Shown here: positions 2,860-56,461 of the stretch, piece by piece
Layout: every line of letters begins with the position of its first letter
Numbering within the stretch: the first letter of the stretch is position 1
DNA from: a virus
Lineage: Duplodnaviria > Caudoviricetes
Length of the DNA stretch: 61,310 bases
IMG/VR virus record: IMGVR_UViG_3300032360_000004
Location: 1-61,310 of that record
Reading direction: 5' to 3' (one strand)
Notes under the pieces: model-generated
What the model was told of the DNA's origin: nothing
What the model saw: the letters and a program-made list of their open reading frames with translations, nothing else
Databases searched by the model: none
Program-made: the position numbers and the translations under genes

Positions 2860-2890
2860 TTGCCCTGTACCGGGGTTACCGTGCTACCAT
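2860..2890 (+). promoter_or_regulatory. Candidate sigma70-like promoter upstream of the structured leader RNA and late operon
   Basis: TTGCCC-19 bp-TACCAT with an extended -10 TG, in an intergenic region. Confidence 0.3.
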
Positions 2891-2973
2891 GAGGGTTATG
2901 GGGTTGCAGGGCTTTACAGGCCCGTAGGCAGCCCCGTAGGGTACCCCAGCGTGCCCGTACATCTAACCCCCCG

Positions 2974-3133: not shown

Positions 3134-3163
3134 ACACCCCCAGTTATGTAGGGACCATCTACC

Positions 3164-15405: not shown

Positions 15406-15423
15406 CCCCACTAGGGGAAACCC

Positions 15424-15462
15424 GCTACCCGGTAGCCGTAACCTATGCGGTTGCCGGGTAGC
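15424..15462 (+). terminator. Long hairpin downstream of the MCP (terminator or stability element)
   Basis: GCTACCCGGTAGCCGTA-loop-TGCGGTTGCCGGGTAGC, with no clear U tract. Confidence 0.55.
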
Positions 15463-15509
15463 TGGGCCTACCCCGTTTACTACCTAACCACTCAACCAGG
15501 AGCGAGATC

Positions 15510-18213: not shown

Positions 18214-18251
18214 GCAGGCTATTAACACCGAGGCCGTAAGAGGAGCGAGGG

Positions 18252-20075: not shown

Positions 20076-20113
20076 CACTACGGGTAAACCCAAACCTTAG
20101 AGGAGCGAGTACG

Positions 20114-27564: not shown

Positions 27565-27627
27565 TAGACGTAGGTCCAACACATTAATACTGCACGCGAA
27601 TTAGGTCTCATACCAGGAGCGAGAAAG

Positions 27628-29526
27628 ATGCCTAAACTAACCATTGGGATGGCCCACTTTGATGACTTTGACGGGGTGTACTTTACACTCCAATCTTTAA
27701 GGCTCTACCACACAGAGTTAATGTCCGAAGTGGAAGTGGTTGTTGTAGACAACAACCCACAGTCGGTTTTAGGCCAAGCTGTAAAAAACTTCATCCAGAG
27801 CCAGTCTCAGGGTACAGGCGGGGGCGTAAAGTACGTAGAGCAGGCCTCCCCCACTGGCACCAGCCCAGCCAGGAATACTATATTTCAGGTTGCCACTGGG
27901 GACTACGTGCTAGTGATGGACTGCCATGTACTCATAGCTCCAGGGGGTTTGGAATACCTGCTGGACTACTACTCTAAACATCCAGATACTTCTGACCTAT
28001 TAACCGGTCCCCTTCTCTATGACAGTATGACCCAGATTAGTACCCACTTCGATGATGAGTGGCGGTCGGAGATGTGGGGGACATGGGGAACCGCCTGGAA
28101 GTGCGGGTGTGGAGACGACGGGGTTGTCTTTTCTCTTAAACCCAGTGGAGAACAAAACCCAGTCACTAAGCCAAGGCTGGTGTCTCCTGGTTACATACCT
28201 ATAGAGTCTTGCGGTACCTGTAAGAAAAAGCTCCCCATACTTGGCTGGGCTGGGCACGAAGAGGCATATTCCAGGGAAGGGTTTAATATGCTGGGTATGG
28301 GCAAGGATGACAAGCCCTTTGAGATACCAGCACAAGGCCTCGGCCTGTTTAGTTGTCGCCGAGATGCGTGGTTGGGGTTCAACCCAGATGCACGGGGGTT
28401 CGGTGGAGAAGAACTATACATACACGGTAAGTATAGGGAAGCCGGGCATAAGGCACTGTGCCTGCCCCCATTGAAGTGGCTCCACAGATTTGGAAGACCC
28501 AGCGGGGTTAAATACCCGCTCACCCGGTGGAACAAAATCCGCAACTACGTGTTAGAGTTTACCGAGATGGGGTGGCCTCTTGATCCTATCCACGAACACT
28601 TCGTGGCTTCTGGGCTAATGCAGGAAGACCACTGGGAACTATTAGTTAGTGACCCAGTTAAAGCCATGGATCCTAATGAGGGAGAAGGGTGTGGCACCTG
28701 TGGTGCAGGGGACACCGGGAACCACGGTTCTATAAAGACCATCGAAGATGCGTACCTTTATGTGAAGGGTATTCCTAGGGATCTGGATCAACACCTGCCC
28801 AAGCTAAAGGAACTCGCTGAACAGGTTGACCACGTGACGGAGTTTAGCAACCGACGCGAGAGTGTAATAGCCCTACTGGCTGGGCTACCTAAAACCCTTG
28901 TTAGCTATAACACAGAACGGGATTCCCTAATCAGGCAGGTAGAGGGACTGGAAAATACGTCTGTGGATTTTACAGTGACTAGCAAAACCAGCGGAGAAGT
29001 ATCTTCTATAGAGGAAACCGACTTACTGTTTTTAGATATGGAGCACACGTTCGACGCATTACTGGTAGAACTATTAAAGTTCGGATCTTCGACCACAAGA
29101 AGATATATAGTAATGCACGACACGCAGATACACGGGAGCATAGGTAGTGACGGTGGACAGGGACTGCTTGATGCCGTGGCGGTATTCCTTGCAGAATTCC
29201 CAGAGTGGTCTGTGATTTACCACACAGCAGAACAGTACGGACTAACCGTACTGGGTAAGCTAAAGAAGGATAAGCCCAAGCTGCCCAGTAAACTAAAGAT
29301 GGCTACCAACCTTGCCAAAGCTATAAGCACGCACGTAGTCACCGGGGGTGAGACTACCAACGCGAAGGACTACAAGGCCCGGCTACAAGCGTGTAACTTG
29401 TGCGACCAACGGGTGGACAGCCAGTGTGCTGCCTGTGGTTGCTTTGTAGATAAGAAGGCATCACTCCAAAGCCAAAACTGTCCTCTTGCCCGGTGGCCTA
29501 AACTAACCACCCCGGTGAAGCCGTGA
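27628..29526 (+). CDS. GT2 glycosyltransferase fused to a methyltransferase-like domain and a C-terminal Cys-rich domain
   Basis: LTIGMAHFDD, VVVDN, VMDCH, GFGGEE; DLLFLDMEH...YIVMHDT; RLQACNLC..C.ACGC...CPLARW. Confidence 0.8.
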   Translation: MPKLTIGMAHFDDFDGVYFTLQSLRLYHTELMSEVEVVVVDNNPQSVLGQAVKNFIQSQSQGTGGGVKYVEQASPTGTSPARNTIFQVATGDYVLVMDCHVLIAPGGLEYLLDYYSKHPDTSDLLTGPLLYDSMTQISTHFDDEWRSEMWGTWGTAWKCGCGDDGVVFSLKPSGEQNPVTKPRLVSPGYIPIESCGTCKKKLPILGWAGHEEAYSREGFNMLGMGKDDKPFEIPAQGLGLFSCRRDAWLGFNPDARGFGGEELYIHGKYREAGHKALCLPPLKWLHRFGRPSGVKYPLTRWNKIRNYVLEFTEMGWPLDPIHEHFVASGLMQEDHWELLVSDPVKAMDPNEGEGCGTCGAGDTGNHGSIKTIEDAYLYVKGIPRDLDQHLPKLKELAEQVDHVTEFSNRRESVIALLAGLPKTLVSYNTERDSLIRQVEGLENTSVDFTVTSKTSGEVSSIEETDLLFLDMEHTFDALLVELLKFGSSTTRRYIVMHDTQIHGSIGSDGGQGLLDAVAVFLAEFPEWSVIYHTAEQYGLTVLGKLKKDKPKLPSKLKMATNLAKAISTHVVTGGETTNAKDYKARLQACNLCDQRVDSQCAACGCFVDKKASLQSQNCPLARWPKLTTPVKP

Positions 29527-30236
29527 GGATATTTATTATTAACTACAACCGGCTGACCAGCACCCGCAATATGGTGGAGTACCTATTAACGCTACCTGAT
29601 GCCGACCCGGTTATCATAGACAACGCCAGCACCTATCCTCCCCTGTTACACTGGTATAACCACGCCTGCCCGGTGGAAGTAGAGTTAGGAACTGAGGATT
29701 TTGGACCACGTGTACTGTGGGCAAATCGTAGCCGCCTAATACCCCCCGGTAAGGTGTACGCTGTAACTGACAGCGACCTGGACCTCAGTGGTTGCCCGGT
29801 TGACCTGTTGCAGCACCTGACCAGTGGGCTGGATCAATACCCTGAGATACGCAAGGTGGGTGTATCTTTAGCCCTGGAAGACATACCTGATGACAACCCA
29901 CTACAAGAGTTTACACGCAACCGCGAGGCACGGTACTGGGAAGACGAACGGGATGACAAGTTTTATGACGCTGACGTGGCCACTACTTTTGCCGTCTACC
30001 GCTCACACGATGGGCAGCCTCCAGCCCACTATGGTCCAGCCTTACGCAGCAAAGCACCGTACCAAGCCCGGCACCTACCGTGGTACCTAACCCCGGACAC
30101 TATGACAGATGAAGATAGGTACTACCTGGACCGCATAAACCCAGCCTGGACGGGTATTGTTTTTAGCCGCCATCTACAAAATCACTTGGATACTTTGGGA
30201 CCGGCTAACTATAAGGAGGACGTGGCATATGACTAA
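29523..30236 (+). CDS. GT2-like glycosyltransferase
   Basis: IFIINYNR, IIDNASTYPPL, VTDSDLD, ARHLPWY. Confidence 0.8.
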   Translation: MRIFIINYNRLTSTRNMVEYLLTLPDADPVIIDNASTYPPLLHWYNHACPVEVELGTEDFGPRVLWANRSRLIPPGKVYAVTDSDLDLSGCPVDLLQHLTSGLDQYPEIRKVGVSLALEDIPDDNPLQEFTRNREARYWEDERDDKFYDADVATTFAVYRSHDGQPPAHYGPALRSKAPYQARHLPWYLTPDTMTDEDRYYLDRINPAWTGIVFSRHLQNHLDTLGPANYKEDVAYD

Positions 30237-30999
30237 CCAACTACCCCGCTTGGCTTGCCTGTGCCCCACGTATAAACGTCCCAACTGCTTAGCTAATGCA
30301 GCCGCCTGCTATGTGCAGCAGACCTACCCCGCACACCTAAGTAGGTTGTTTGTGCTGGACGACGCAAGCCAGCACGCGGACAGTCCGGTGTCTGATGACG
30401 GTATAAGGTGCATAGTGCAGAGCAGTCGGTATACCACCCTGCCAGCCAAGTTTGCAGCACTGATAGACATAGCCACAGCCGAATGGAATCCAGATGCGTT
30501 TGTCATCTGGGAAGATGATGACGTGTTCCTACCTTGGCACTTACAGAGTATCTCCGACGCTATTATGTCAGGGGGAGAATACCTGACCAGCCGCACCGTA
30601 CATAGCACTTACGAGCAGCCCATGGGTGGGACTGTACTAGAAGGTGCAGATGGTAGGTTCCACAGTTCCTGGGCATTTACGGTAGACCTTCTTAAACGTA
30701 TTGGAGGCTACCCCAACACAGCACGCCTGGACTTTGACCAGCAACTAGGCTCGGCTCTTAAAGCCGAAGCCGGTACAGCCCACCACTACAGCTACCCACG
30801 GGGACCACAGCCCAGCTACGTGTACCGCTGGGGTAACGGTATATACCACGGTAGTCAGCGGGGCGAGGAAGGTTTTCAATCTCTATGGGATGAACTGTCC
30901 CAGCTACCTGCCCCGTATGTAGGTGCCTTGGTGCCGAAGATGGATAGAGAAACCACCCTAATACATAAGGTGCTGCAATGCGATGGGCTTACGGTGTAA
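30229..30999 (+). CDS. GT2 glycosyltransferase
   Basis: CLCPTYKRP, QTYP, VLDD, WEDDDVFLPWHL. Confidence 0.85.
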   Translation: MTNQLPRLACLCPTYKRPNCLANAAACYVQQTYPAHLSRLFVLDDASQHADSPVSDDGIRCIVQSSRYTTLPAKFAALIDIATAEWNPDAFVIWEDDDVFLPWHLQSISDAIMSGGEYLTSRTVHSTYEQPMGGTVLEGADGRFHSSWAFTVDLLKRIGGYPNTARLDFDQQLGSALKAEAGTAHHYSYPRGPQPSYVYRWGNGIYHGSQRGEEGFQSLWDELSQLPAPYVGALVPKMDRETTLIHKVLQCDGLTV

Positions 31000-31715
31000 C
31001 CACGGTACCCCAGCGGTTCGACAATCTATTACCACGCACCTTAGAATCGTTGGCTGCTGGTGGCTTTGATAAGCCAAGGTTGTTTGTGGACGGTGTACAG
31101 AACGCTAGCCAGTATGACTATCTGGGCCTGGAAGTGACCACCCACTACCCCACCATACGGACCTACGGTAATTGGCTGTTGGCCCTATGGGAACTGTACA
31201 TACGCAACCCAGCGGCTGAGCGGTACGCAATATTCCAGGATGACATAATTACCTACCGCAATTTACGACGGTACCTGGAACAGACTACTTACACCCACGG
31301 TTCCCATGAACTGTACTACAACCTCTACACCTACCCGGTAAACCAAAGCCCTCCACCCAGTGAGGAGTATACCGGGTGGCACGCCAGTAACCAGATGGGT
31401 CGTGGTGCACTGGCCTTGGTGTTTAACCGTCCGGCAATTAGTACCCTGCTGGAACAGTCCCATATAATTTCCCACCCGCAGAATGCCCAACGTGGCTGGC
31501 GTAGTGTGGACGGCACAGTGGTGACAGCCTTTAAAGCTATCCAGTGGCTAGAGTACGTACACGCCCCCACCTTGGTGCAGCACACAGGTACCGACCTCAG
31601 TAGTATGAAGAACCGTGGATACCGTGAGCTACCTGAAACCTTTAAGGGTGAAGCCTACGACGCCCTTCAACTGCTACCCACCACTGAGTCAATAGAAGCA
31701 CAGCCATGCCCATGA
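30978..31715 (+). CDS. GT-A fold glycosyltransferase-like protein
   Basis: GVTTVPQR, IFQDD, GALAL, PTLVQHTG..SS. Confidence 0.7.
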   Translation: MRWAYGVTTVPQRFDNLLPRTLESLAAGGFDKPRLFVDGVQNASQYDYLGLEVTTHYPTIRTYGNWLLALWELYIRNPAAERYAIFQDDIITYRNLRRYLEQTTYTHGSHELYYNLYTYPVNQSPPPSEEYTGWHASNQMGRGALALVFNRPAISTLLEQSHIISHPQNAQRGWRSVDGTVVTAFKAIQWLEYVHAPTLVQHTGTDLSSMKNRGYRELPETFKGEAYDALQLLPTTESIEAQPCP

Positions 31716-32038
31716 AAACCATAACCCTGGACAGCCCAAAGGACTTCCTAACCTACAGAGAAGGGTCAGGAAATACTGTGGAAATATTTGACATACAGGT
31801 GGGCACCAAGCGGGGCCGAGGGCGTGGTCGCAAACTTGTAGATACGCTGTTGAAGAAACTGGCACACCCCCCGATCCATGGCCGTCCACTACCTATCCCT
31901 ATGGTGTTTGCTATTACCCGGCATAACAACCGGATTGCTCGGGAGTTTTATACAGCAGTCGGGTTTAGGTTTGTTGGTTTCTTACACCACTTTTACGGGG
32001 TAGGTAATGACGCAGTTATGTATGGAATAGACGCATGA
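31706..32038 (+). CDS. GNAT acetyltransferase
   Basis: KRGRGRGRKLV and N..AREFYTAVGF motifs. Confidence 0.85.
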   Translation: MPMKTITLDSPKDFLTYREGSGNTVEIFDIQVGTKRGRGRGRKLVDTLLKKLAHPPIHGRPLPIPMVFAITRHNNRIAREFYTAVGFRFVGFLHHFYGVGNDAVMYGIDA

Positions 32039-33030
32039 AAGTAGGCACACTGGCATACGCCACTAGCCAAGGGCTGGGCATACTGGCCAAGTCATTTATC
32101 GACAACGGGGTGGTAACCGACATCCTGGTGGTAGAGCACTACAACCGTCCAGCTAATGACTGGTATCCTGATGCACCGGTCACCCCCATGGCCCCGCTTA
32201 ACATGGACCTAGCTAGGGACTTTGTTAAGAGCATGGACGCGATGCTGTTTTTTGAAACCCCATTTAGTTGGGATCTAATACCTTACTGCCGCGACAACGG
32301 TGTACGTACCGTACTCATGCCCATGTACGAATGTATGCCCCGCACCCTGCCCTACTGCCCCGACAGCTACATATGTCCTAGCCTGTTGGACCTACGCCAC
32401 TATCCTCTAAACAGCACCTTTATACCTGTGCCGGTCCAGGTACCTTGGCAGCAACGGCACAAGGCCCGCACCTACGTACACAATGGTGGACACCTTGGGC
32501 TACGTGGGCGTAATGGTACCCTGGAACTACTACAGGCTATGAAGTATGTACAGAGTCCACTACGGCTGCTGGTGCGTGGGCAGTGCGGTAGTTTCCCAGG
32601 ATTAGTAAGTCAGGTACCAGAAATAGCGAGCGACGAACGGGTTAGCATTATAAGGGGCACCCTGCCGTACGATGAACTGTGGAACACCGGGGACGTGTTT
32701 GTTTTCCCCGAGAAGTTTAATGGTCTCAGCCTAGCCTTACAGGAAGCCCGTGCTGCCGGGATGCTGGTGATGGGCACACACCGGTACCCAATGACAACAT
32801 GGCTACCTAACGAAGCCCTGATACCTGTACTTGGCACACACCGGGCTTGTGTCAGTGGACGGTGTATAGAGTTTGACGAGGCAGTGATAGACCCAGAAGA
32901 CATAGCCGCCACAATGGACAAGTGGTACGACCAGGATATATCCAGCCAGTCACTAGCTGGTAAGCACTGGGCCGAGGATATGAGTTGGGAAAGCCTTGGT
33001 CCTCAGTACCTGGAATACATAATAGGTTAG
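32035..33030 (+). CDS. GT4-like (GT-B) glycosyltransferase
   Basis: GDVFVFPEKFNGLSLALQEARAAGMLV; C-terminal SWE. Confidence 0.85.
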   Translation: MKVGTLAYATSQGLGILAKSFIDNGVVTDILVVEHYNRPANDWYPDAPVTPMAPLNMDLARDFVKSMDAMLFFETPFSWDLIPYCRDNGVRTVLMPMYECMPRTLPYCPDSYICPSLLDLRHYPLNSTFIPVPVQVPWQQRHKARTYVHNGGHLGLRGRNGTLELLQAMKYVQSPLRLLVRGQCGSFPGLVSQVPEIASDERVSIIRGTLPYDELWNTGDVFVFPEKFNGLSLALQEARAAGMLVMGTHRYPMTTWLPNEALIPVLGTHRACVSGRCIEFDEAVIDPEDIAATMDKWYDQDISSQSLAGKHWAEDMSWESLGPQYLEYIIG

Positions 33031-33038
33031 CCTACACC

Positions 33039-33929
33039 ATGCACATACTATACGTGGCTAAACACCGGGGCGGTGGTAACGATGACGAGGGAGCAATTAC
33101 CTATGGACTGCGGGAACTGGGCCACACCGTCACAACCATAGACGAAAACCGTGGTCACCAAGCTAGTGCCCACATCGGGGGAGCAGACATATGCCTGTTC
33201 CATAAATGGCAGGATCTTAATACCATCAGGAAGATAACTATTCCCAAAGTGTTCTGGTACTTTGACCTAGTGACCTATGACGATATTAAACTGGATGTAC
33301 GTAACGGCCAACGTGTGCAGTGGATGGAAGCGGTAACCCCACTAGTAGACCTAGGATTCTGCACCGACGGGGATTGGGTATCTCATGACACCAGTGGTAA
33401 ACTCCACCACCTGACCCAAGGGGCTGACGTTAGAACGGCCCTTCCAGGTAACCCACTACCAGCCGGACCGCCTATAGCTCTGACCGGTATACGGACTGGT
33501 GGTGGTACAGGACGCGAGAGCCATGTGGACGAACTGGTATCAACCTACGGTAGTAGTTTCCACCATGTAATTAGTGGGGTGCATGGCAGCCAATTGGCTG
33601 ACGTTATAGCCCGGTCCCGGATAATGATCGCCCCGGACTCACCAACCACAGACCTTTACTGGAGTAACCGTGTGTACCTTACGCTGGGTTATGGTGGGTT
33701 CATGTTGCATCCCTATTGCCACAACCTAACCCGTCACTACACCGACGGTGTCCATCTTGTGTACTACCACACCCGGCAAGACCTAAACGAAAAAGTAGAG
33801 CACTACCTCCACCACCCCGATGTCTGCCACCGTATAGCCGCAGCCGGGTACGCCCATACCTTAGCCCACCACACGTACACACGCCGATGCCGTGCACTGG
33901 TGAAAACTGCGGAGGACCATCTGTTATGA
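33039..33929 (+). CDS. CgeB-like GT-B glycosyltransferase
   Basis: YWSNRVYLTLGYGGF, IAAAGY...HHTYTRR. Confidence 0.8.
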   Translation: MHILYVAKHRGGGNDDEGAITYGLRELGHTVTTIDENRGHQASAHIGGADICLFHKWQDLNTIRKITIPKVFWYFDLVTYDDIKLDVRNGQRVQWMEAVTPLVDLGFCTDGDWVSHDTSGKLHHLTQGADVRTALPGNPLPAGPPIALTGIRTGGGTGRESHVDELVSTYGSSFHHVISGVHGSQLADVIARSRIMIAPDSPTTDLYWSNRVYLTLGYGGFMLHPYCHNLTRHYTDGVHLVYYHTRQDLNEKVEHYLHHPDVCHRIAAAGYAHTLAHHTYTRRCRALVKTAEDHLL

Positions 33930-34480
33930 CAATCTCTACTCCTATGCCCCAGGACATATTAAACCCTGCTTTTTGGCAGGAGCAGTTGCACGGTGCCGAG
34001 CACCTACACCACGCTGTGTTCCACTGCCCACCAGAAAAGTGGCAACGCATAGAACAGCGACACCGGGAAATACTGGCTGAACATATACAACCCGCCGACA
34101 GTGTTCTGGATGGGGGGTGTGCATGGGGCAGAATGATAGACCTGCTACCGCCGTCCTGGCAGGGCACCTATACGGGTGTTGACCTGTCCCCAGACTTTAT
34201 AGACATGGCCAAGGCTAACTACACCCCGGTGGATGAGGCTCATAACGTACCCCTGTTCTACGTGGATGATCTACGTAACGACTTGCACTACCTGACACAC
34301 CATATACCCCAGTCTAAATATGACTGGGCCATAGTGGTAAGTATGAGGCGAATGATAATCCGCAACTTGGGGGATGAAGGATGGGACCTCATACAGCACC
34401 AACTGTTTAATGTGGCTAAGCGGATACTGATGCTGGAATATAAAGAAGACGACGTTGGACAGGTTCTGGTTTATTGTTGA
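33926..34480 (+). CDS. Class I SAM-dependent methyltransferase
   Basis: SVLDGGCAWG, YTGVDLSPDFI. Confidence 0.85.
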   Translation: MTISTPMPQDILNPAFWQEQLHGAEHLHHAVFHCPPEKWQRIEQRHREILAEHIQPADSVLDGGCAWGRMIDLLPPSWQGTYTGVDLSPDFIDMAKANYTPVDEAHNVPLFYVDDLRNDLHYLTHHIPQSKYDWAIVVSMRRMIIRNLGDEGWDLIQHQLFNVAKRILMLEYKEDDVGQVLVYC

Positions 34481-34499
34481 CCCAAGGAGAGCGAGAAAG

Positions 34500-35474
34500 A
34501 TGGAAGCCAGGAGCATACTAAAATCCAATGCCTGTGTTATTGGTGGTGCTGGGTTTTTGGGTAGCCACCTAGTTAACCGGCTGGTGGAAGACTACGGCTG
34601 CACCGTGCTGGTGTTGGACAACCTGATAAGTGGCCTACCCAAGCACGTACACCCGGCTGCTAAGTTTGTATGGCATGACATACGCGATGAGGAATCTACC
34701 ACCACCCGGCTCCTGGTAGACCACGACATACAGTTTGTATTCAACTACGCAGCAGAGCCGTACATACCTGAGTGCTGGGAACGACCACTGCACTTCTTTG
34801 ACATTAACGCTGTGGCTGTGCTGCGGGTACTTAATGCCTGCCAGCAGGCTGGGGTGGAAGGGCTGCTACAGGTTAGCAGTGCAGAAATATATGGAGATAT
34901 GAAGGGTAAGATTAAGGAGACCGACCCCGTGCAGGCTCACAGCACCTACGGGGTAAGCAAGCTAGCAGCCGACGGGCTAGTCCAGGTGAGGTGGCGTGAG
35001 GCCAGTGTTCCGGCTATTGCCATGCGTCAGTTTAACTGTGTGGGTGAGCGGGAAACCCATGAGTACGTTATCCCAGAGATTATAAGCCAACTGGCTGCCC
35101 AACAGGGCCGGGATAACGCACTGGTGCAACTGGGCAACAACAGCACTAGGGATTTCCAGTATGCGGGGGATGCCGTAGCCATGGCCATAGAACTACTGGA
35201 GCACGGTCAGTATGGCGACGTATACAACATGGGCAGCGAAGAGGCCATAACCATCTACGACCTAGCCGTTCTGATAGGTGACCTGATGGGCTTTGGCAGC
35301 ACCTCTATAAATACGGATGCAGAGCGTGTACGCCCTTGGGAAATATGGCACTTACAAAGCGACAACACCAAGCTGTATGGTGTTATCAGGCAACGCCCAC
35401 GGGTTCCCCTAAAGCTGGCTCTACAACGGACCATTGACTACTACCACGCCAACAACAACCGCTGGGATTTCTAG
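34500..35474 (+). CDS. NAD-dependent nucleotide-sugar epimerase/dehydratase
   Basis: IGGAGFLGSHL, SSAEIYG, YGVSK, RQFN, RDFQY. Confidence 0.93.
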   Translation: MEARSILKSNACVIGGAGFLGSHLVNRLVEDYGCTVLVLDNLISGLPKHVHPAAKFVWHDIRDEESTTTRLLVDHDIQFVFNYAAEPYIPECWERPLHFFDINAVAVLRVLNACQQAGVEGLLQVSSAEIYGDMKGKIKETDPVQAHSTYGVSKLAADGLVQVRWREASVPAIAMRQFNCVGERETHEYVIPEIISQLAAQQGRDNALVQLGNNSTRDFQYAGDAVAMAIELLEHGQYGDVYNMGSEEAITIYDLAVLIGDLMGFGSTSINTDAERVRPWEIWHLQSDNTKLYGVIRQRPRVPLKLALQRTIDYYHANNNRWDF

Positions 35475-35476
35475 CC

Positions 35477-36508
35477 GTGCAACCGTACCAAGACCTGGAG
35501 CACAAGTACGGCCAGTGGATAGGCAACCCCAACACGGTGGCCTGTGCTACCGGTACGGCTGCCCTGCACTTAGCCCTGGAAGCCTTATGTCTGCCACCGG
35601 GCAGCGAGGTGTTAGTGCCCGAGTTTACCATGGTGGCCTGTGCCCGTGCGGTAACCATGGCCGGGCTGGTGCCTGTGTTTGTAGACTGCGATCCCACCAA
35701 TCTACTGGTAAGCCCCAAAGCCTACAGCCAACATATAGGACCACGCACCAGAGCCATAATGGTGGTCCACATATATGGCCGACAGTGTGACATGGTAGGC
35801 GTGTCCACATTAGCAGCACAGCACAACCTAGCCGTGGTAGAAGACCTAGCCGAAGCCCACGGCATAGCACCCCACCCGGCCAGCACCGCAGCCTGCTGGA
35901 GTTTCTACCGGAACAAAATTATAGCCGGTGAGGAAGGTGGTATGGTGGCCTTTAAGCAACAGGCCCACGCCACCAAGGCACGCCAACTACGGAGCCTGGG
36001 ATTCACCCCCGACCATGACTTCAAACACATACCACGGGGCGTTAATGCCCGACTGAGCAATTGCCACGCCACGCTAATACTAGGAAGCCTAGCCACCGTG
36101 GAAGACAACCTGACCAAGCGAACACAGGTGTGTAACTGGTACGACCAGCTAGTGCCCCCGGCCTACCACCAGCCACCCCGTGCAGTGTGCTGGGTGTACG
36201 ACATATGCCTACCATCGGAAACTAACACCTCGCTCCTGGTCAGCAAGTTAAACACGGCAGGGGTGGCAGCCCGTCTAGGGTTTAAGCCCATGAGTGAGCA
36301 ACCAGAATACGCAGCCCCGGTGCAGCACCTAGCCGCTTACCGGGCCAGCAGGCAGGTGGTGTACCTACCAGTACAGCCACGCCTGGAACAGCCACAAGTA
36401 CGGAAGACCGTACAGGCGTTACTGTCAGCCATTCAGTCCCAGTCCCCGCCCTGCGGCATGGGTCCGCTCGCTCCGGCACGTGCCTGTGGGGTGGGGCTGG
36501 GGCGTTAG
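35477..36508 (+). CDS. DegT/DnrJ/EryC1/StrS PLP aminotransferase
   Basis: TGTAALHLAL, VHIYG, VVEDLAEAHG, SFYRNKIIAGEEGG. Confidence 0.93.
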   Translation: MQPYQDLEHKYGQWIGNPNTVACATGTAALHLALEALCLPPGSEVLVPEFTMVACARAVTMAGLVPVFVDCDPTNLLVSPKAYSQHIGPRTRAIMVVHIYGRQCDMVGVSTLAAQHNLAVVEDLAEAHGIAPHPASTAACWSFYRNKIIAGEEGGMVAFKQQAHATKARQLRSLGFTPDHDFKHIPRGVNARLSNCHATLILGSLATVEDNLTKRTQVCNWYDQLVPPAYHQPPRAVCWVYDICLPSETNTSLLVSKLNTAGVAARLGFKPMSEQPEYAAPVQHLAAYRASRQVVYLPVQPRLEQPQVRKTVQALLSAIQSQSPPCGMGPLAPARACGVGLGR

Positions 36509-36513
36509 CTGAA
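36432..36513 (+). ncRNA. Long hairpin with apical GTCCGCTCGCTCCGGC (anti-RBS element 2) at the 3' end of the late operon
   Basis: TCCCAGTCCCCGCCCTGCGGCATG pairs, with G.U pairs and bulges, with CGTGCCTGTGGGGTGGGGCTGGGG. The loop matches 3046-3061 at 15/16 positions. Confidence 0.55.
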
Positions 36514-36786
36514 CAGGTGCAGGGTAAGTGCTGCATTTACGGCCCAAGGCTCACAGGGGGGCTGTGTGGCCCTGTGCAGCACCGTGTGTACCCCCATGGC
36601 CCGTAAAGGCTGCCATATGGCTCTGTACGGGCCTGTAATCAGTTGGGCATGGGTTTTAGCCTTACCAGTACCCAAGGCCCGTACAGGGGCACACAGGGCC
36701 GTTAAATGGCTGCACGAAAAAACCCCCCAGCAGCACCCAACTTTATGGGTACCACCGGGGGGGTGGAAGCAGCAGGGGTAAGGGGG

Positions 36787-37035
36787 CTAAGCCCCGGTTT
36801 CAGTGAAGGACAACCACAGGCCAACCGCATCAGCCAACCAGTACAGGGTGTCCAGGCGGGGGCTAGGTATCTGCCCCTGCTTATATTTGTCAATGGTAGC
36901 CAATGACACACCACTACGCCTGGAAAGCTCTGCTGTGTTCCAGCCCAAGCTGTCGGCAGCTATAAAGATGCCACCCAGCAGTTCGTCACGCTGGTCCAGA
37001 TAGTCACGGTCATCGGTACGGGTAACAGCACTCAT
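36787..37035 (-). CDS. XRE-family HTH protein
   Basis: ELSRRSGVSLATIDKYKQG...PRLDTLYWLADAVG. Confidence 0.8.
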   Translation of the reverse strand: MSAVTRTDDRDYLDQRDELLGGIFIAADSLGWNTAELSRRSGVSLATIDKYKQGQIPSPRLDTLYWLADAVGLWLSFTETGA

Positions 37036-37052
37036 GCAGTGCACACTCCTTA

Positions 37053-37145
37053 TTATTCAAGCCAGCCCAGCCAGTCCGCCAGTGCGGACATACCAGCCAT
37101 GGCAGTTAGTAAACAGGCAAACTCCATCAGTCCTAGTGTTGGCAT
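37053..37145 (-). CDS. 30-aa hydrophobic peptide
   Basis: MPTLGLMEFACLLTAMAGMSALADWLGWLE with AAGGAAGGAA RBS. Confidence 0.45.
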   Translation of the reverse strand: MPTLGLMEFACLLTAMAGMSALADWLGWLE

Positions 37146-37183
37146 ACTAATAGTTCCTTCCTTGGTAATAGGTATGCACGATG

Positions 37184-39013
37184 CTAGCTAACATACACCA
37201 GCACCTTAGCAGCACGAGTGATAGCCACGTAACGCAGGTTCATTTCCTGGTCACGTTGCCATGCACTCTTAGCCATGGGGTGTGGGATACCCGCACCTTC
37301 CGGCTCCAGCAAAAACACCCGGTCGGCTTCTAACCCCTTGGCCTTATGTACACTGCTCAGCATGATGCCGGGAGTGTTTCGGTCGTTAGTAAATATCTGC
37401 TCGATCTTACTAATGACGTCCGCAATACTCTGGGCTTCCTCAGTGAAGCACAGCAGGCAATCGTGCCGGTCTTGCAAAGCAATGAGCCGGGCCGAACTGG
37501 GATTACGCTTAGCGTTTTCCTTTCGTTCTTCTGCGTGCAGCCAGTCAGTCAACCGGCCCACTAGGTTAGGTACGTCAGATGCCTTAAGCCTATTGACGGT
37601 GCTAATGAGACCTTGACCAATGTCCCGTCCCTGGATGTTAGCCTGCACCCCGTCTTTAATAAACCTAAAGCACTCACTGACCAGCGGAGCATTAACACGG
37701 CACAGTACCATGTCGCCACCTGTGGCTATGGTGCGGTAATTACCATCACCCTTATACGCAGCCCGTAGCACGGTGCCAGGACCGTTGTCGGGGTGGGCTT
37801 CAAAGTCTGGTACCAACGCACGGGCCTCTTCCACTATGGCCTTGCCACAACGGCGGGTCACTGTCAGTGGCAAACTAGTGCAGCCCCGGTTAGTCTCGCT
37901 AAGGATCTCTTCCAGGCGGGGTATGCTGTCACTGTCCGCACCGGCAAACCCGTAAATAGCCTGCTTGGGATCACCACACAGTACCAGCCTACTGCCTACC
38001 TTCAGGGCAAGCTGCTGCTGGCAGCGGTTCAGGTCCTGGGCTTCATCAACCAGCAGCAGATCGTACTGGGTGACGGGCAGGTCCAAGGCCACGGGTAGCC
38101 ATATCATGTCGTCGAAGTCTATGCACCCGTCACGGGTCACATCCTTACAACGGTCAAGCACTCGGGGCACAAGGTCAAACACTTCAGCCTCGCTACCATT
38201 AAGCTCCACGTCATAGTGGGCTGCCAGTTGTTGCAACTCATCCTGCATAGTAGTTAGCAGGTTGGTCTGAGTAGCACCCAGTCCCACGAGGTTCATCTTG
38301 CACAGGCTAACCAGCTTGGCAGTGGCCCGGACCATGGACCGTTTCTTCTCATCCCGTCGCAGGGCACGGCTATCCTGGCCCAGCAACTCAGCCACAATAT
38401 CCTGCACCCGGTACTGGTTAACCTTCACCCGGCCACAGGCTTTACCTACAGCCTTAAAGCCCATGCTGTGCATTGTCATAGCTTCACAGCCTGCGGGTAC
38501 CCGCTGCTGCAACTCTGTGGCGATGGACTTATTAAAGGCGACGAAGCAGATGGTGCGGACCTTACCTGCACTCAACTGCATAGCGTCCCACACGGCTGCC
38601 TGCTGGGGGCTGGGGGTTAGGGGGCTGGTGCCACCCTGTACCAGCTTTAACCCTTCCACCAGTGTGGTGGTCTTGCCAGTACCAGCCCGTGCAATAACAA
38701 CCAAGTGCGGTGCCGTGCACCGTATCAACGGCCTGTCCCCACGTAGGACATTGGCCAACCCAATACTGGGCTCCTGGTGTGGCGGGATACCACCAAGCCC
38801 TGTGCCGTCGTTGGCACAGGCGTCGGTGCTGTTGAGGCAGACAAACCTAGCAGCACTACGAAACGTATGTTCCAACCCGGTTACAGGCTCAGTGACAGTG
38901 TACCGGGTACGACCCCGGCTGTTCTGTGTAATAGCGTCCACACGTACGGACGTCTGCTCGCCACCCACTGTGGCCACATATAGTCTTCCCTGTTCAATCT
39001 GTGATTTCCTCAT
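37184..39013 (-). CDS. UvrD/Rep-like SF1 helicase
   Basis: ARAGTGKT, VDEAQD, GDPKQAIYGFAGA, SSVHKAKGLE, YVAITRA. Confidence 0.93.
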   Translation of the reverse strand: MRKSQIEQGRLYVATVGGEQTSVRVDAITQNSRGRTRYTVTEPVTGLEHTFRSAARFVCLNSTDACANDGTGLGGIPPHQEPSIGLANVLRGDRPLIRCTAPHLVVIARAGTGKTTTLVEGLKLVQGGTSPLTPSPQQAAVWDAMQLSAGKVRTICFVAFNKSIATELQQRVPAGCEAMTMHSMGFKAVGKACGRVKVNQYRVQDIVAELLGQDSRALRRDEKKRSMVRATAKLVSLCKMNLVGLGATQTNLLTTMQDELQQLAAHYDVELNGSEAEVFDLVPRVLDRCKDVTRDGCIDFDDMIWLPVALDLPVTQYDLLLVDEAQDLNRCQQQLALKVGSRLVLCGDPKQAIYGFAGADSDSIPRLEEILSETNRGCTSLPLTVTRRCGKAIVEEARALVPDFEAHPDNGPGTVLRAAYKGDGNYRTIATGGDMVLCRVNAPLVSECFRFIKDGVQANIQGRDIGQGLISTVNRLKASDVPNLVGRLTDWLHAEERKENAKRNPSSARLIALQDRHDCLLCFTEEAQSIADVISKIEQIFTNDRNTPGIMLSSVHKAKGLEADRVFLLEPEGAGIPHPMAKSAWQRDQEMNLRYVAITRAAKVLVYVS

Positions 39014-39243
39014 CGTGCTTGCTCCTTAGTGTTGGGCCTCTTACGGCCACGGGGATAGCCCTTGGGCTGTGGTGTGTCGCGGTATAGTTCCGCGTCATGT
39101 AGTGCAATGGTGTAGCGGTAGCCGTGCTGGTTATTACGAGTAGGTACCCGTCGTGCCCGCAACCGGCCCACACGTATAAGGGTGCGGACCTGTTGCGGAC
39201 TACAGCCTATAACCTTGGCTGCCTGAGCAGGGGTTAATACCAT
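39010..39243 (-). CDS. Excisionase-type HTH protein
   Basis: LTPAQAAKVIGCSPQQVRTLIRVGRLRA. Confidence 0.8.
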   Translation of the reverse strand: MVLTPAQAAKVIGCSPQQVRTLIRVGRLRARRVPTRNNQHGYRYTIALHDAELYRDTPQPKGYPRGRKRPNTKEQAR

Positions 39244-39250
39244 GGCGTCC

Positions 39251-40792
39251 TCACTTCTTGTAGCAGGAAAGTAGTTCAGGTAGGTGGCCCAACAACAGGC
39301 CAGCCATGTCAGTCAGCTTGTTGGCGTAGTTCTCGTCATGGTCCAGGTAGCCCATGCCATGCACCAACTCATGTACAGCGGTTATAGCCAACTGGTGCAG
39401 GTCACCCCTTGCCCGGTTGGGACTGTAGTTATAACGGCGAGTATACTTGCCGTCCGCAATGTTAACCGGGTTGAGGTAGTACACCTTGCCGTGCTTCTCA
39501 GTACATTCGTACTGAGCCAGCACGTCGTCATCGCTGAATATAAAGCCCACTGTAAACTGGTCATCCCAGCCGTACACCTCATGCAGCTTGACCAGCAGCT
39601 TGGTCCAGATGGTCATGATGCGGTAGGCATACTTGCAGAAGTCCGGGCTATCCGGCCTGTACTGCTTTTTAACCTTGTAGCCAGTTTCATTCTTAATGAC
39701 GAAGGCACTGGCCAACACGTACACACCGGCATCCACCATCTGCTGGTGTTGCTCGGGGGTTGGCTGGCTGCCGTCCAGGTTAAACTTTATCTGGCCGTAG
39801 TGCTGCTCCACCACTGGCCGGTTATCATACTGGCCAGTGTCGCCACTGGTAACTACGTCACCAAGACTAGGACCACCCTCTTCCGCAGGGCGTGCCGTCA
39901 CGGTCTTAGCTGCCGTGGTCTTGGCTGCGTGCTTGGCTGCCTGTGCAGCGAAGCCAGTGCAGGCCACCTTATCGCCCTCGTACCGCAGGTACTCTATGGG
40001 CTTAGGCTTCAGTGCCTTACGCTTGTTGGTAATCAGGTCAGTTAGAAACTCATCCAACTGGGCCTGTTGCTGCCAACGCAAGCCGTCCCGGTTGGACATC
40101 AGCACGTCGCTGCTAATACCTTCCAGTTCTACCACCACACACCCGTCGTACTTGGTGGTCTGCGTGAACATGGGCGTACCACCAATCCTCACAACCAGTA
40201 ACCGGCTGGCCTGCTTGTTGGTGTACACCCGGCCGAAGGGCAGGTCGCGACGGTAATAGCCCCGTCGCATACCGCCATCCACTTGCTCACCGTTCACAGT
40301 AAACGTGCACCGCACGTTACTAAGACTGATGAACCGCTTAGCCTGTTGTAACAGGTCAGCACCGCATTCCTCAGGTATGGTGATGGTGCTGGTAGTGCCT
40401 TCCAGGCGTGGGGCATTGCGTCGCAACTTGTAGTTAGCCCCGGTACCACTGACTTCCAGCCTACCTGTGTGAATCTTGAAGGCTTCCCAGCAGAAGTACA
40501 GCAGTTCCTTGGCTTTGCCAAAGCCACCCACGCTACCGTCGGCAAAGTCTTTACCACTGGCACCCAGTGCCAGCAGCTTGCCAACCAGAGTATCCTCGGT
40601 CATAGGGCTACCGTTGTTGGCCACTATAACCGTGGTGCAGCCACCACCGGCTTCCCTGATGGTAACGTCCACCTGTTTGCTGCCGCAGTCTATACTGTTC
40701 TGGAAAAACTCACGCAGCAACGCCCACTGCCAGTTACGGTAGTCATTACGGGCCTTGCTAAAAAACTCAGGACTAATAGTTATCTGGGACAT
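39251..40792 (-). CDS. GHKL (HSP90/MutL-like) ATPase with C-terminal HExxH domain
   Basis: LLREFFQNSID, NNGSPM, SGK, GGFGKA; C-terminal AVHELVH...H. Confidence 0.8.
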   Translation of the reverse strand: MSQITISPEFFSKARNDYRNWQWALLREFFQNSIDCGSKQVDVTIREAGGGCTTVIVANNGSPMTEDTLVGKLLALGASGKDFADGSVGGFGKAKELLYFCWEAFKIHTGRLEVSGTGANYKLRRNAPRLEGTTSTITIPEECGADLLQQAKRFISLSNVRCTFTVNGEQVDGGMRRGYYRRDLPFGRVYTNKQASRLLVVRIGGTPMFTQTTKYDGCVVVELEGISSDVLMSNRDGLRWQQQAQLDEFLTDLITNKRKALKPKPIEYLRYEGDKVACTGFAAQAAKHAAKTTAAKTVTARPAEEGGPSLGDVVTSGDTGQYDNRPVVEQHYGQIKFNLDGSQPTPEQHQQMVDAGVYVLASAFVIKNETGYKVKKQYRPDSPDFCKYAYRIMTIWTKLLVKLHEVYGWDDQFTVGFIFSDDDVLAQYECTEKHGKVYYLNPVNIADGKYTRRYNYSPNRARGDLHQLAITAVHELVHGMGYLDHDENYANKLTDMAGLLLGHLPELLSCYKK

Positions 40793-42728: not shown

Positions 42729-42777
42729 GGTTTGTTTCCTTCAGTTGATGGTAGTGAATGGTGAGTAGTGAGGTGTA

Positions 42778-43152
42778 CTAGCAGTCCGAACCAATCGTGG
42801 GGCAGCAGTGAGCAGAGTTGCACCGGTACTTAGGAGTGATGGTCCCAGCGTTGTAGGGAGTCATCGGGTTGCCGCACTCACCACATGAGGGTCGGCGGGT
42901 TTTCTTGGGGGCCGGTAGTGGCAAAGCACAAATCCCATCTGAGTCAATGACATTGTAAGCGGCTTGGAGCAGGCTGACCTGTGCAGCCCTTTCCTCTTTG
43001 GTCTGGACCCACTCTTGCACTGGGTACAGGTCAGCACTGGTGAGGTAGTGGATCTTACACAGGGCGTCCAGGTCTTTGTTGTTGATGGCAGTGGCGAGGG
43101 CGTTGTTGAAGTCAGTCGCGTTTGTGATGAAATCCATGTCGAAGTCGAACAT
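42778..43152 (-). CDS. Hypothetical protein with C-terminal Zn ribbon
   Basis: GGAGCAAGC RBS before MFDFDMDF; CGECG...YRCNSAHC. Confidence 0.65.
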   Translation of the reverse strand: MFDFDMDFITNATDFNNALATAINNKDLDALCKIHYLTSADLYPVQEWVQTKEERAAQVSLLQAAYNVIDSDGICALPLPAPKKTRRPSCGECGNPMTPYNAGTITPKYRCNSAHCCPTIGSDC

Positions 43153-49342: not shown

Positions 49343-50350
49343 ATGCCAAAGAAAACCGGAAGCGGTGGATTTTCCAACAAGCTGGGTAAAGCGGGTCGGA
49401 AAGCGTTTAATACCCACAAGAGCGACGACACTAATATGGGAGGTGGTGCTGAACTGCCGCCCGGCATTGAAGGAGGTATAGCTCAACTGGTGGAGTGCAA
49501 GTTTGACCAGTATAAGCGTGGCCCTAATCAGGGGGAATATTTCTTCTACGCTGCTGCGGTAGTTGTGCAGCCTACTGAGCATGGAGGTATCGGTATTGAG
49601 GGGCTGCGTACCAGTATCATGGAACCGCTGTGTGACACCCCCCAACGCAGCCGACCCGACATGGATGCCCACCTGGACTGGGTGTTAAATGAACTGCGTA
49701 AGCTGGGTGTGGCCACAGACGATATCGACTTTGATGATATTGAAGACGTGGCAGCAGCTATTAAAGCCGAGGGACCTTATATGAGGTTCCGCACGTGGCA
49801 GGGTGAACCCACCGAGCAGTGGCCCAACCCACGGGTTAACCACCAGTGGGGTGGTGCCTGCACATATACCCCGGATGATGACGGGGATGCTGTGGTGGAC
49901 AACACTGATGATGACGATGAAGATGATGAAGATGACACCCCGGCACCAGTGGAAGACACTACTGATAGTTCTGACCTGGACGCACTGGCTGCTGCTTCAG
50001 ATGAAGGTGACGAGGAGGCCCAATCTAAACTGGCCGACGCAGCCTTTGAAGCCGGTGTGGATGAGGAAGATGTTAGTAATGCTGAGAACTGGGTAGCCGT
50101 AGCTGAACTGGTTAAAGCAGTTGACCAGGACGAGACTGATGATGACGACGATGATGATGACGATGACGAGGCTACCGATTGGCAGCCAGAGAAGGGGGAA
50201 GTGTATAGCTATAAGCCCCCCAAGGCACGCAAGACGGTGGACTGCGAAGTGACTGCTGTGTTTAGTGGCAAGGAAACGTGCAACCTTAAAAACCTTGACG
50301 ATGGCAAGGTCTATAAGGCTGTGTCCTGGGATAAGCTGGAGCAGGAATAG
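49343..50350 (+). CDS. Putative ssDNA-binding protein with long acidic C-terminal region
   Basis: Follows the exonuclease and Sak4 genes; OB-like N-terminal half; poly-Asp/Glu tracts. Confidence 0.55.
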   Translation: MPKKTGSGGFSNKLGKAGRKAFNTHKSDDTNMGGGAELPPGIEGGIAQLVECKFDQYKRGPNQGEYFFYAAAVVVQPTEHGGIGIEGLRTSIMEPLCDTPQRSRPDMDAHLDWVLNELRKLGVATDDIDFDDIEDVAAAIKAEGPYMRFRTWQGEPTEQWPNPRVNHQWGGACTYTPDDDGDAVVDNTDDDDEDDEDDTPAPVEDTTDSSDLDALAAASDEGDEEAQSKLADAAFEAGVDEEDVSNAENWVAVAELVKAVDQDETDDDDDDDDDDEATDWQPEKGEVYSYKPPKARKTVDCEVTAVFSGKETCNLKNLDDGKVYKAVSWDKLEQE

Positions 50351-50369: not shown

Positions 50370-50421
50370 CCCAAGGATGGGTTATGGGTGTGTGCTTGCT
50401 CCCTTGGGCCACGGATGGCCC
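50370..50421 (+). ncRNA. Small RNA element: two GGA-loop hairpins flanking the anti-RBS GGGTGTGTGCTTGCTCCCTT (anti-RBS element 3)
   Basis: CCCA-AGGA-TGGG (50370-81) and GGGCCA-CGGA-TGGCCC (50406-21); alternative stem CCCAAGG/CCTTGGG. Confidence 0.6.
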
Positions 50422-50428
50422 TTTATAT

Positions 50429-50502
50429 ACCCCTGTAGCTCAGTCGGTTAGAGCAGGGTGCTCATAACGCTTTGGTCGCAGGTTCGAATCCTGCCGGGGG
50501 TA
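50429..50502 (+). tRNA. tRNA with CAT anticodon, most likely tRNA-Ile2 (lysidine, reads AUA); CCA not encoded
   Basis: Cloverleaf ACCCCTG/CGGGGGT, GCTC/GAGC, loop CTCATAA, GCAGG-TTCGAAT-CCTGC. C4/C5 acceptor pairs and the overall sequence resemble Ile2 tRNAs. Confidence 0.9.
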
Positions 50503-55445: not shown

Positions 55446-55467
55446 TCATGACCACCGGGCAGGTACC

Positions 55468-55504
55468 AAAGAAAAACCCCCACCCCCCAAAGGGGGCAGG
55501 GGTT
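55468..55504 (-). terminator. Rho-independent terminator for the histone-like gene
   Basis: GC-rich hairpin followed by TTTTTCTTT on the - strand. Confidence 0.65.
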
Positions 55505-55525
55505 ACAACAGCCGGGCCAGTGGCC

Positions 55526-56332
55526 CTAGCTAAACTTCAACATCTTTGCCAAGCCGGGGGCCGTCAGTTTGGGACCCTTGGCCGCAACCTTGCTGGCCTT
55601 CTTGGGTGCCTTCTTGGCCTTGGCCTTGGCCTTGGCCTTGGGGGCAGCCTTGGGGGCAGCCTTCAGGGTCTTGGTGCCCTTGGCCGTGACGGCGAAGCAG
55701 AACCGTGCTCGGCCGTGGTTGTCCTGGGCCTCATGGCTCTTGATGAGTCCCTGACCTTCCAGGCTGTTGGGGTAGCTGGCACCCTTGCTACTGTTGGCAG
55801 CCATCATGCGGGTCAGCCCCTTCAAGATGCCCGTGGCAACCCGGACGTCATTGTAGGACACGTTGCCCTTGGCCTTGGCCACTGCGGTCAGGATTCTAAC
55901 CTGACTGCCCGTGAGTCCAGCAACCTTGGGGCCAGTGGCCTTGCGGGTCTTGCGGCTGGCCTTGGGGCTGGCCTTCTTGGTGTTCTTCTTGGCAGTCTTC
56001 TTGGCAGTCTTCATAGCTTGCTCCTTGCCACTCTTGGTGGCTTTGGAAACTTGACGGGAGGTACGCTGCCCCGACTTCAGCAACAGAGTGCAGGGCACAG
56101 CCTGCACATTGAGGAAACCTTGATTTGTACGGGTGGCAACCTGCTTGGCAGCCAACTCAGGAGAACCGGCCCAACCCAGCACACCGTCTCCGGGCAGGTT
56201 GTAATGTCTGGTCTCGCCGGTTGCAGGGTGGTGGATCCCAGTGGCCGTAATGCAGTGGGTGTAGGTGCGGGCCGTGGTGCGGGTGTGGATGGTGCCGTCT
56301 TGGGCGGTTATGGTGTAGGTTTTCTTGGACAT
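55526..56332 (-). CDS. Histone H1-like Lys/Ala-rich protein with central winged-helix; second in-frame start at 56014
   Basis: KTAKKTAKK and KAAPKAAPKAKAKAK repeats flank LTGSQVRIL...SLEGQGLI...FAVTAKG. A GGAGCAAGC RBS precedes both 56332 and 56014. Confidence 0.75.
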   Translation of the reverse strand: MSKKTYTITAQDGTIHTRTTARTYTHCITATGIHHPATGETRHYNLPGDGVLGWAGSPELAAKQVATRTNQGFLNVQAVPCTLLLKSGQRTSRQVSKATKSGKEQAMKTAKKTAKKNTKKASPKASRKTRKATGPKVAGLTGSQVRILTAVAKAKGNVSYNDVRVATGILKGLTRMMAANSSKGASYPNSLEGQGLIKSHEAQDNHGRARFCFAVTAKGTKTLKAAPKAAPKAKAKAKAKKAPKKASKVAAKGPKLTAPGLAKMLKFS

Positions 56333-56377
56333 GGTTGCTTGCTCCGTTTGCGTGGGCCGTGTGAATGTCATAAACGA

Positions 56378-56406
56378 ACTATCCCAGTTATCGGCAAACA
56401 GCACAA
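56378..56406 (-). promoter_or_regulatory. Candidate sigma70-like promoter for the histone-like gene
   Basis: TTGTGC-17 bp-GATAGT with a TG extension. Confidence 0.4.
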
Positions 56407-56461
56407 GCCCCCTGCACCTGTTTTGGCAAGTTTGTTATAAATAGCAAGCAAACCCCTCGTT

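Follow-up and report, generated by a model that had tools for sequence, protein, structure and literature searches.

In the Caudoviricetes record IMGVR_UViG_3300032360_000004, an operon of structural genes ends in a long imperfect RNA hairpin that lies inside the coding sequence of its last gene, a DegT-type aminotransferase. The hairpin has kept its plus-strand base pairing in a close relative, and its 7-nt apical loop, CUCGCUC, is the exact complement of GGAGCGAG, a motif placed at the ribosome-binding site (RBS) of four late genes. A sister hairpin in the leader of the same operon exposes CUUGCUC, the exact complement of GGAGCAAG, the variant found at early starts. Judging from sequence comparisons and folding models, we regard pairing between loop and RBS as the best single explanation of the 3' hairpin, with a probability of about 0.4. 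The window analysed here, 61,310 bp long, is a complete virus record of IMG/VR that is classed as linear and has a CheckV completeness of 87%; the labels "late" and "early" are inferred from the gene content of its blocks. The elements on which the argument turns are:

35477-36508, plus strand: open reading frame (ORF) of the DegT/DnrJ/EryC1-type aminotransferase, last gene of the late block, with its stop TAG at 36506-36508
36422-36505, plus strand: lineage-specific tail of this ORF (codons 316-343), outside the Pfam domain and containing the hairpin
36436-36503, plus strand: long imperfect RNA hairpin of 28 pairs, -50.2 kcal/mol, the 3'-terminal structure of the late operon
36462-36477, plus strand: 16-mer apex of this hairpin, shared with 3046-3061 at 15/16 positions
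36467-36473, plus strand: 7-nt apical loop CUCGCUC, closed by a 3-bp CCG/CGG clamp; together with C36474 it complements GGAGCGAG
3015-3093, plus strand: sister hairpin in the late-operon leader, with its apex at 3046-3061 and the loop CUUGCUC at 3051-3057

The RNA structure in the aminotransferase tail

On the plus strand, the fold of 36436-36503 has a z-score of -3.72, and none of 200 shuffled sequences was as stable. The minus strand of the same segment reaches only -35.9 kcal/mol (z -1.75), 14 kcal/mol weaker than the plus strand. In a scan of the record with 80-nt windows and a step of 8, covering both strands, this hairpin was the most stable fold (mean -20.7, standard deviation 6.2). Each base of the CUCGCUC loop is predicted to be unpaired with a probability of at least 0.94, and the CUUGCUC loop of the leader is likewise predicted to be unpaired. 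The initial annotation had pointed out that the two apices are the same but for one T/C difference, although the stems are unrelated, and both statements proved accurate. The sequences GTCCGCTCGCTCCGGC at 36462-36477 and GTCCGCTTGCTCCGGC at 3046-3061 agree in 15 of 16 bases, with no third copy within three mismatches on either strand of the window, and a covariance model built from the 3' hairpin aligned the apex of the 5' hairpin only (E 0.26-2.3).

The hairpin had also been described as overlapping a non-conserved-looking end of the aminotransferase ORF, a view that the protein comparisons bear out. The Pfam family PF01041 matches the ORF with an E-value of 4.7e-66 over residues 5-315 of 343 (profile positions 27-359 of 360), cellular homologues match it only up to residues 303-319, and the tail is lacking in the 16 other DegT homologues that we aligned. 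By these comparisons the tail looks dispensable. We searched for close relatives by protein-anchored scans of IMG/VR and metagenomes, which yielded one relative for each hairpin: L064 for the 3' end, and G001 (loci L015, L095 and L096) for the 5' end. The metagenome contig L064 aligns to 35030-39552 with 87.8% identity. The hairpin itself differs at 8 of its 68 positions (88.2% identity), and its surroundings are 85-91% identical. All 29 pairs of the consensus fold are intact in L064: four one-sided changes still pair through switches between C-G and U-G or between G-U and G-C, and one two-sided change replaces C-G by U-A. Three of the four one-sided changes would give A-C mismatches in minus-strand RNA. 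At the protein level, the tail differs from L064 by 7 non-synonymous and 3 synonymous codon changes, as compared to 15 and 33 in the enzyme body. Because the pairs are maintained by G-U-compatible or compensatory changes while the tail protein changes mostly non-synonymously, the plus-strand RNA structure of the 3' hairpin appears to be under selection, with the ORF merely reading through it. As for the loop, whose conservation in relatives the initial annotation had taken as a test of its proposal, L064 keeps it together with the 17-nt core around it (the closing C-G becomes U-G), but this has little weight because the whole region is 85-91% identical.

The sister hairpin shows a different kind of constraint. 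Compared to G001, a run of 33 nt (3039-3071) is invariant, whereas the flanks are only 58.8% (50/85) and 67.6% (46/68) identical. This invariant island in diverged flanks argues for selection on the sequence of the sister apex. The consensus fold is kept as well, with none of 32 pairs broken by six one-sided and four two-sided changes. Further relatives were sought by several routes. A search of the genome_contigs collection returned homologues of at most 43% identity, and a covariance model of the hairpin gave no match among 29 helicase-family loci. A pattern scan with the apex returned 21 stretches, of which one was related (L015) and 20 looked like chance matches; two longer apex patterns added no new relative, and L134 was rejected as an unrelated coding match. 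An exact 13-mer in the genome G005, considered as an analogue, was likewise discarded since it lies in sense orientation inside an ORF.

As a GC-rich stem-loop at the end of a transcription unit, in the last plus-strand gene before a convergent block, the hairpin resembles a terminator. It is, however, not a standard intrinsic terminator, because no U-tract directly follows the 36436-36503 stem (GCGUUAGCUGAACAGG comes next), unlike the two canonical terminators of the window:

36723-36762, minus strand: canonical intrinsic terminator with a 17-pair stem followed by T6, ending the convergent minus-strand block
2828-2840, plus strand: canonical terminator with a T-run, from the terminator scan

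That scan does not list 36436-36503. The 3' hairpin also belongs to no catalogued RNA family: Rfam 15 contains no family matching either hairpin, and permissive scans of 36380-36800 and 2745-3170 gave only matches with E-values of at least 0.58, far below threshold. No sigma-70-like promoter that could drive an independent small RNA (sRNA) was found within 35800-37400, so any small RNA would have to be cut out of the late transcript. Nor does the hairpin have the layout of an Hfq-type sRNA from a 3' untranslated region (UTR), which combines a U-tailed terminator with a single-stranded upstream seed; here, the complementary bases are located in the apical loop.

Several neighbouring structures came to light alongside the two hairpins. 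Directly after the DegT stop codon, a segment of 22 nt (36509-36530) with a small hairpin (GCAGGGUAAGUGCUGC) is absent in L064. The following 195-nt spacer between the end of the late operon and the minus-strand terminator (36531-36725) folds strongly on both strands (plus -84.5, z -1.65; minus -88.7, z -2.91) and keeps 59 of 59 consensus pairs compared to L064, with two compensatory changes; a long-range GGCCCUGUG/CACAGGGCC helix is among these pairs. A structured 3' UTR and a separate non-coding RNA, on either strand, are both possible readings of it. Within the operon, the putative major capsid gene (14260-15405) is followed by a perfect stem, about 20 bp long and with no U-tract (15414-15470), which immediately precedes the GGAGCGAG site of gene 15510 and is likely an intra-operon stabiliser or attenuator. 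To the left of the conserved leader, a comparison of 2745-3163 with positions 1-2500 of G001 reveals a mosaic junction. In G001, this side carries leftward early genes homologous to 42749-43139 and 56088-56346 of the window, and in the window it carries three plus-strand ORFs (305-2744) followed by the canonical terminator at 2828-2840.

Two variants of a start-associated motif

The motif complementary to the loops, GGAGCRAG, has 22 copies in the window, 15 of which are followed 2-8 nt on by an ATG that opens an ORF of 65-632 aa. Like the start-associated sequence (SAS) of Cluster K mycobacteriophages, it lies no more than a few nucleotides from the starts of a subset of genes, and it is kept at orthologous starts in G001 and L064. 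The two variants are distributed as follows:

15499-15506, plus strand: GGAGCGAG, 3 nt before ATG 15510
18242-18249, plus strand: GGAGCGAG, 2 nt before ATG 18252
20102-20109, plus strand: GGAGCGAG, 4 nt before ATG 20114
27616-27623, plus strand: GGAGCGAG, 4 nt before ATG 27628, the first gene of the glycosylation cassette
39018-39025, minus strand: GGAGCAAG, early-class example, 4 nt before the helicase ATG 39013
40792, 41105, 43152 and 45678 (minus strand), and 46585, 47159, 48218 and 58670 (plus strand): other starts with GGAGCAAG, making nine clear non-late starts together with 39013

A fifth GGAGCGAG copy, at 53077, is a doubtful case with an 11-nt spacer, and two more minus-strand GGAGCAAG starts (56332 and 56014) fall into a region whose coding strand is unsettled. 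Among the clear cases, the four late starts thus have the G variant and the nine non-late starts the A variant (Fisher test computed by hand, p about 0.0014). G001 presents the same division: its three orthologous late starts have the G variant, and five early starts that point leftward have the A variant. The motif also reaches beyond close relatives. In G003 (L113, at 248, 744 and 1067) and G006 (L115-L118), whose helicases are about 50-60% identical, GGAGCAAGC occurs two to four nucleotides before the ATG of a few genes, which implies that the extended motif predates this lineage. The CRAG extension presumably has no partner in the near-universal CCUCC anti-Shine-Dalgarno (anti-SD) sequence of 16S rRNA. 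The reverse copies in the hairpin loops, at 3058 (minus) and 36474 (minus), are not at gene starts and are followed by no conserved ORF.

Duplex predictions give the two loops different ranges. The C loop of the 3' hairpin forms a perfect 8-nt duplex of -15.5 kcal/mol with GGAGCGAG and one of -11.6 with GGAGCAAG; the U loop of the leader reaches -15.8 with GGAGCAAG and, through a G-U pair, still -13.4 with GGAGCGAG. According to these models, the C loop should discriminate between the classes and the U loop should tolerate both, in line with the narrower and broader seed specificity that the initial annotation had assigned to them. Its larger claim, that a second regulator exists and that two seeds address two RBS classes, fared less evenly: the loops are exact complements of variants that are split between late and early genes, but the G variant is found at only 4 of about 35 late genes, and in L064 an early-side helix-turn-helix (HTH) gene is preceded by it.

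Two further stretches of sense-strand complementarity and one region of uncertain coding were noted in the course of these scans. At 50394-50402, between the ORF 49343-50350 and the tRNA gene at 50429-50502, GGAGCAAGCAC has a third complement on the sense strand. The sequence on both sides agrees with the early RBS cassette and no minus-strand start codon follows, so that it looks like the relic of a gene start or RBS cassette; as a third anti-motif loop it was rejected, since in the minimum-energy fold it is not part of a loop. A fourth sense-strand anti-motif, at 36229-36236, was set aside as unstructured coding sequence. In the region 55448-56440, a 330-aa plus-strand ORF overlaps a minus-strand ORF that has the two perfect GGAGCAAG-ATG starts, 56332 and 56014, in the same frame. 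Neither translation matches any PHROG, and the homologue of 56088-56346 is located among the leftward early genes of G001.

Proposed loop pairing and its alternatives

If the loops act on the motif, the following course of events can be envisaged. The long G-U-rich stem at the end of the 33-kb operon would most likely provide a 3' end that resists nucleases or is defined by processing, be it on the late mRNA or on a fragment cut from it. The exposed CUCGCUC loop would then base-pair with GGAGCGAG at the RBS of the four late genes 15510, 18252, 20114 and 27628, either in trans or over a long range within the same polycistronic RNA, and in doing so it may compete with 30S binding and damp their translation. 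The leader loop CUUGCUC would act likewise on the early GGAGCAAG sites, so that the accumulation of late RNA would shut down early translation. We prefer pairing over the alternatives because it accounts at once for the shared apex, for the complementarity to both variants and for the sequence constraint on the sister apex. Taken alone, the 15/16 match is within the reach of chance. The case for pairing is conditional and rests on context: among 3000 random genomes, 22 produced a 15/16 pair that includes this very 8-mer, and both copies of the 16-mer sit exactly in the apical loops of hairpins that are kept in relatives. A bolder version, which we think unlikely as a whole, holds that the phage uses a one-letter RBS address (GGAGCAAG for early genes, GGAGCGAG for some of the late ones) read by two loops at the ends of the late transcript. 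Late RNA would serve as a timer, the leader loop silencing early genes and the 3' loop tuning the four late ones, and the same logic would explain the SAS of Cluster K.

A number of observations weigh against loop pairing. Each hairpin has a single close relative, and the lack of change in the 17-nt loop core does not reach significance (about p 0.1); a shuffle control of the pair count was uninformative on a two-sequence alignment (258/500). Besides the sparse use of the G variant among late genes and its presence at the early-side gene of L064, the 8-mer has six non-start copies compared to about three in random sequence, so its mere presence means little. The window contains 84 direct 15/16 pairs, as opposed to 22-40 in five composition-matched random sequences. 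Some starts of the distant relatives G002-G006 use GGAGCAAGC, yet no anti-motif hairpin was found in these genomes. The 3' hairpin has no U-tail or other known chaperone-binding feature, and ribosomes translating the DegT tail must melt it. In addition, four of nine aligned Cluster K phages have a different loop in the corresponding hairpin described below.

One alternative is a plain 3'-end hairpin, by which the late transcript would be terminated or protected, be it as a barrier to exonucleases, as an RNase III-type processing site or as a factor-dependent pause. Its loop would have no partner, and its likeness to the leader apex and to the complement of the RBS would reflect chance or functionless shared descent. 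This we consider doubtful but serious. The element is located where the last late gene ends, faces the convergent block and is the strongest hairpin of the record. The other strong stem without a U-tract, at about 15414-15470 after the putative capsid gene, indicates that the operon uses such stems. The structure is kept in L064, with a loop no better conserved than its surroundings, and 15/16 matches are common. A partnerless loop is harder to reconcile with the rarity of a 15/16 pair that includes this 8-mer (22/3000), with the exact placement of both copies in apical loops of hairpins kept in relatives, and with the 33-nt invariant island at the sister apex, which bespeaks a sequence-specific constraint. 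The missing U-tract, compared to the canonical terminators nearby, also tells against simple termination.

Less probable still, in our view, are sister protein-binding sites, with an RNA-binding protein of phage or host (an antiterminator, a processing factor or a translational operator protein) recognising GUCCGCUYGCUCCGGC at both transcript ends and the complementarity to the RBS being incidental. A precedent exists in phage lambda, whose N protein binds the boxB hairpins of nutL and nutR, which differ in one loop base. The identity of the two apices indeed runs past the 8 nt that RBS pairing needs into the closing stem (GUCCG...CGGC), the invariant 33-nt block at the 5' end is longer than a seed requires, and the leader copy comes just after a terminator, a typical position for an antitermination site. 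At the operon 3' end, facing a convergent block, antitermination has no obvious use. We identified no candidate RNA-binding protein, the neighbouring ORF 3164-3544 having no PHROG match; the closing C-G pair has turned into U-G in L064; and a protein site would be unlikely to match both RBS 8-mer variants by chance (22/3000).

A feature of the DNA or of the minus strand, in which the 8-mer is a double-stranded site used in either orientation or a minus-strand RBS for an 8-codon ORF starting at 36459, is very improbable: minus-strand GGAGCGAG is followed by an ATG after 7 nt, within the spacing range of real starts, but the mini-ORF has just 8 codons and its ATG is lost in L064 (on which ground we rejected it as the gene behind the reverse motif), the substitutions keep G-U pairs that exist only in plus-strand RNA, the minus-strand fold is the weaker one, and the tight spacing of 2-8 nt between motif and ATG at 15 sites speaks for translation and not for DNA binding. 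The stoperators of Cluster A mycobacteriophages are a comparison for such a DNA site read in either orientation.

Genome setting and relation to known systems

The gene content of the window gives a siphovirus-like layout, made up of the following blocks and features:

about 3164 to 36508, plus strand: structural block with small and large terminase, portal, head proteins, tape measure and tail genes, and the glycosylation cassette at its end
27628-36508, plus strand: cassette members, namely a GT2 glycosyltransferase (with weak methyltransferase-like and DUF6171 matches), GT1-like enzymes, a methyltransferase, a 4,6-dehydratase/epimerase (NAD-epimerase/dehydratase) and the DegT aminotransferase
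up to about 45909, minus strand: convergent block with an HTH gene (37035-36787), a UvrD-type helicase (39013-37184) and onward
from about 45885, plus strand: second block, assigned to replication by gene content
50429-50502: tRNA, the only match of the window at the Rfam gathering level

The nine-gene sugar-modification cassette that closes the structural operon (27628-36508) suggests virion glycosylation. Near-identical DNA is present in several marine metagenome runs. Contig pieces from four DNA runs are near-identical to the window, of low depth and with two differences, and are uninformative for the hairpin. No close isolated phage was found: helicase identity is about 35% at best, and a search of the 'phages' collection with the window DNA gave no match.

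For the motif and its reverse copies, the nearest likeness is the SAS of Cluster K. Passages of Pope et al. 2011 (PMC3203893) describe it as a 13-nt sequence, GGGATAGGAGCCC, found 3-7 nt ahead of non-structural gene starts; they leave its function open, with a host or phage partner that could be 'either RNA or protein', and they report for K1 phages one copy in opposite orientation that is not at a gene start. Passages from 2024 (PMC11373665) and 2025 (PMC12699233) still call the SAS role undefined, and the former reports that late expression of Adephagia and ZoeJ begins near the right genome end. In the genome of Anaya (JF704106), we located the only reverse SAS copy in the non-coding gp96-gp97 gap, near the right genome end (39871-39883, minus strand, of L100). 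There, it forms the 10-nt apical loop CCUCCUAUCC of a plus-strand hairpin (39845-39910 of L100, about 59844-59909 of the record), a placement that the passages of the SAS literature at hand do not mention. The 66-nt fold has -26.7 kcal/mol (z -2.78) and a 146-nt fold a z-score of -4.43. The hairpin stands just downstream of a terminator-like stem and U-run that we read from the sequence after gp96, and its region is present in 145 Cluster K records. In an alignment of nine Cluster K phages, the hairpin persists, two of its pairs having changed in a compensatory manner; among the loops, five are anti-motif, two are related and C/U-rich, and two are different. The Anaya order matches the order seen here, in which a terminator is followed by a leader hairpin with an anti-early-motif loop and then by the structural genes, and this raises the prior for the pairing model. 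As an analogy, the Cluster K parallel would concern the 5' sister and not the 3' hairpin itself.

The two motifs are alike in being short and asymmetric, in joining GGAG to conserved bases without a 16S partner, in standing a few nucleotides before the ATG of a gene subset, and in being conserved across relatives. Both systems further have a rare reverse copy away from gene starts in the loop of a conserved hairpin, one in Anaya and two in the phage described here. They differ in sequence (GGGATAGGAGCCC in Cluster K, GGAGCRAG here) and in setting, soil actinobacteria as opposed to a marine source. Moreover, the motif of the present phage comes in two variants, divided between late genes and early ones, and its late operon is bordered by two anti-motif hairpins, in the leader and at the 3' end.

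Among antisense RNAs, those of the c4 or RNAIII type present an exposed loop complementary to the RBS of the target, and the predicted fold and duplex of the 3' hairpin give the same picture. The c4 RNA of P1/P7 is a structured phage RNA whose exposed loops pair with the ribosome-binding region on the same transcript, and the hairpin described here would share such loop-to-RBS pairing. However, c4 has a single target, located downstream of it, and matures by processing into a defined small RNA, whereas our element is a 3' end within a coding tail and faces a motif of several genes. RNAIII of Staphylococcus aureus and other sRNAs with C-rich loops use a hairpin-loop anti-Shine-Dalgarno sequence to reach several targets with one motif. 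The apical loop of the 3' hairpin likewise offers a C/U-rich complement to the RBS; RNAIII pairs with the universal SD core, whereas here discrimination would come from the non-SD CRAG extension, and the RNA is viral. The sRNAs derived from 3' UTRs in enterobacteria combine a U-tailed intrinsic terminator with a single-stranded seed on its 5' side. In common with them, the candidate regulator would be cut from, or share, an mRNA 3' end; in contrast to them, it has no U-tract, carries its seed in the apical loop and lies inside an ORF. Rho-independent terminators and 3' stabilisers share the GC-rich hairpin at an operon end, but here the U-tract is absent and the 28-pair stem is far longer than those of the canonical terminators nearby.

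Should the loops pair as proposed, the phage would use the ends of its late mRNA as sequence-addressed translational regulators, achieving RNA-only timing without a dedicated sRNA gene. The loops would then also be the first candidate partner for start-associated motifs, and a direct test would be possible in Cluster K, whose members are cultivable and for which RNA-seq already exists. Without such pairing, we would still have here a clear example of an RNA hairpin captured in a coding 3' end, in which the structure rather than the protein appears to be selected.

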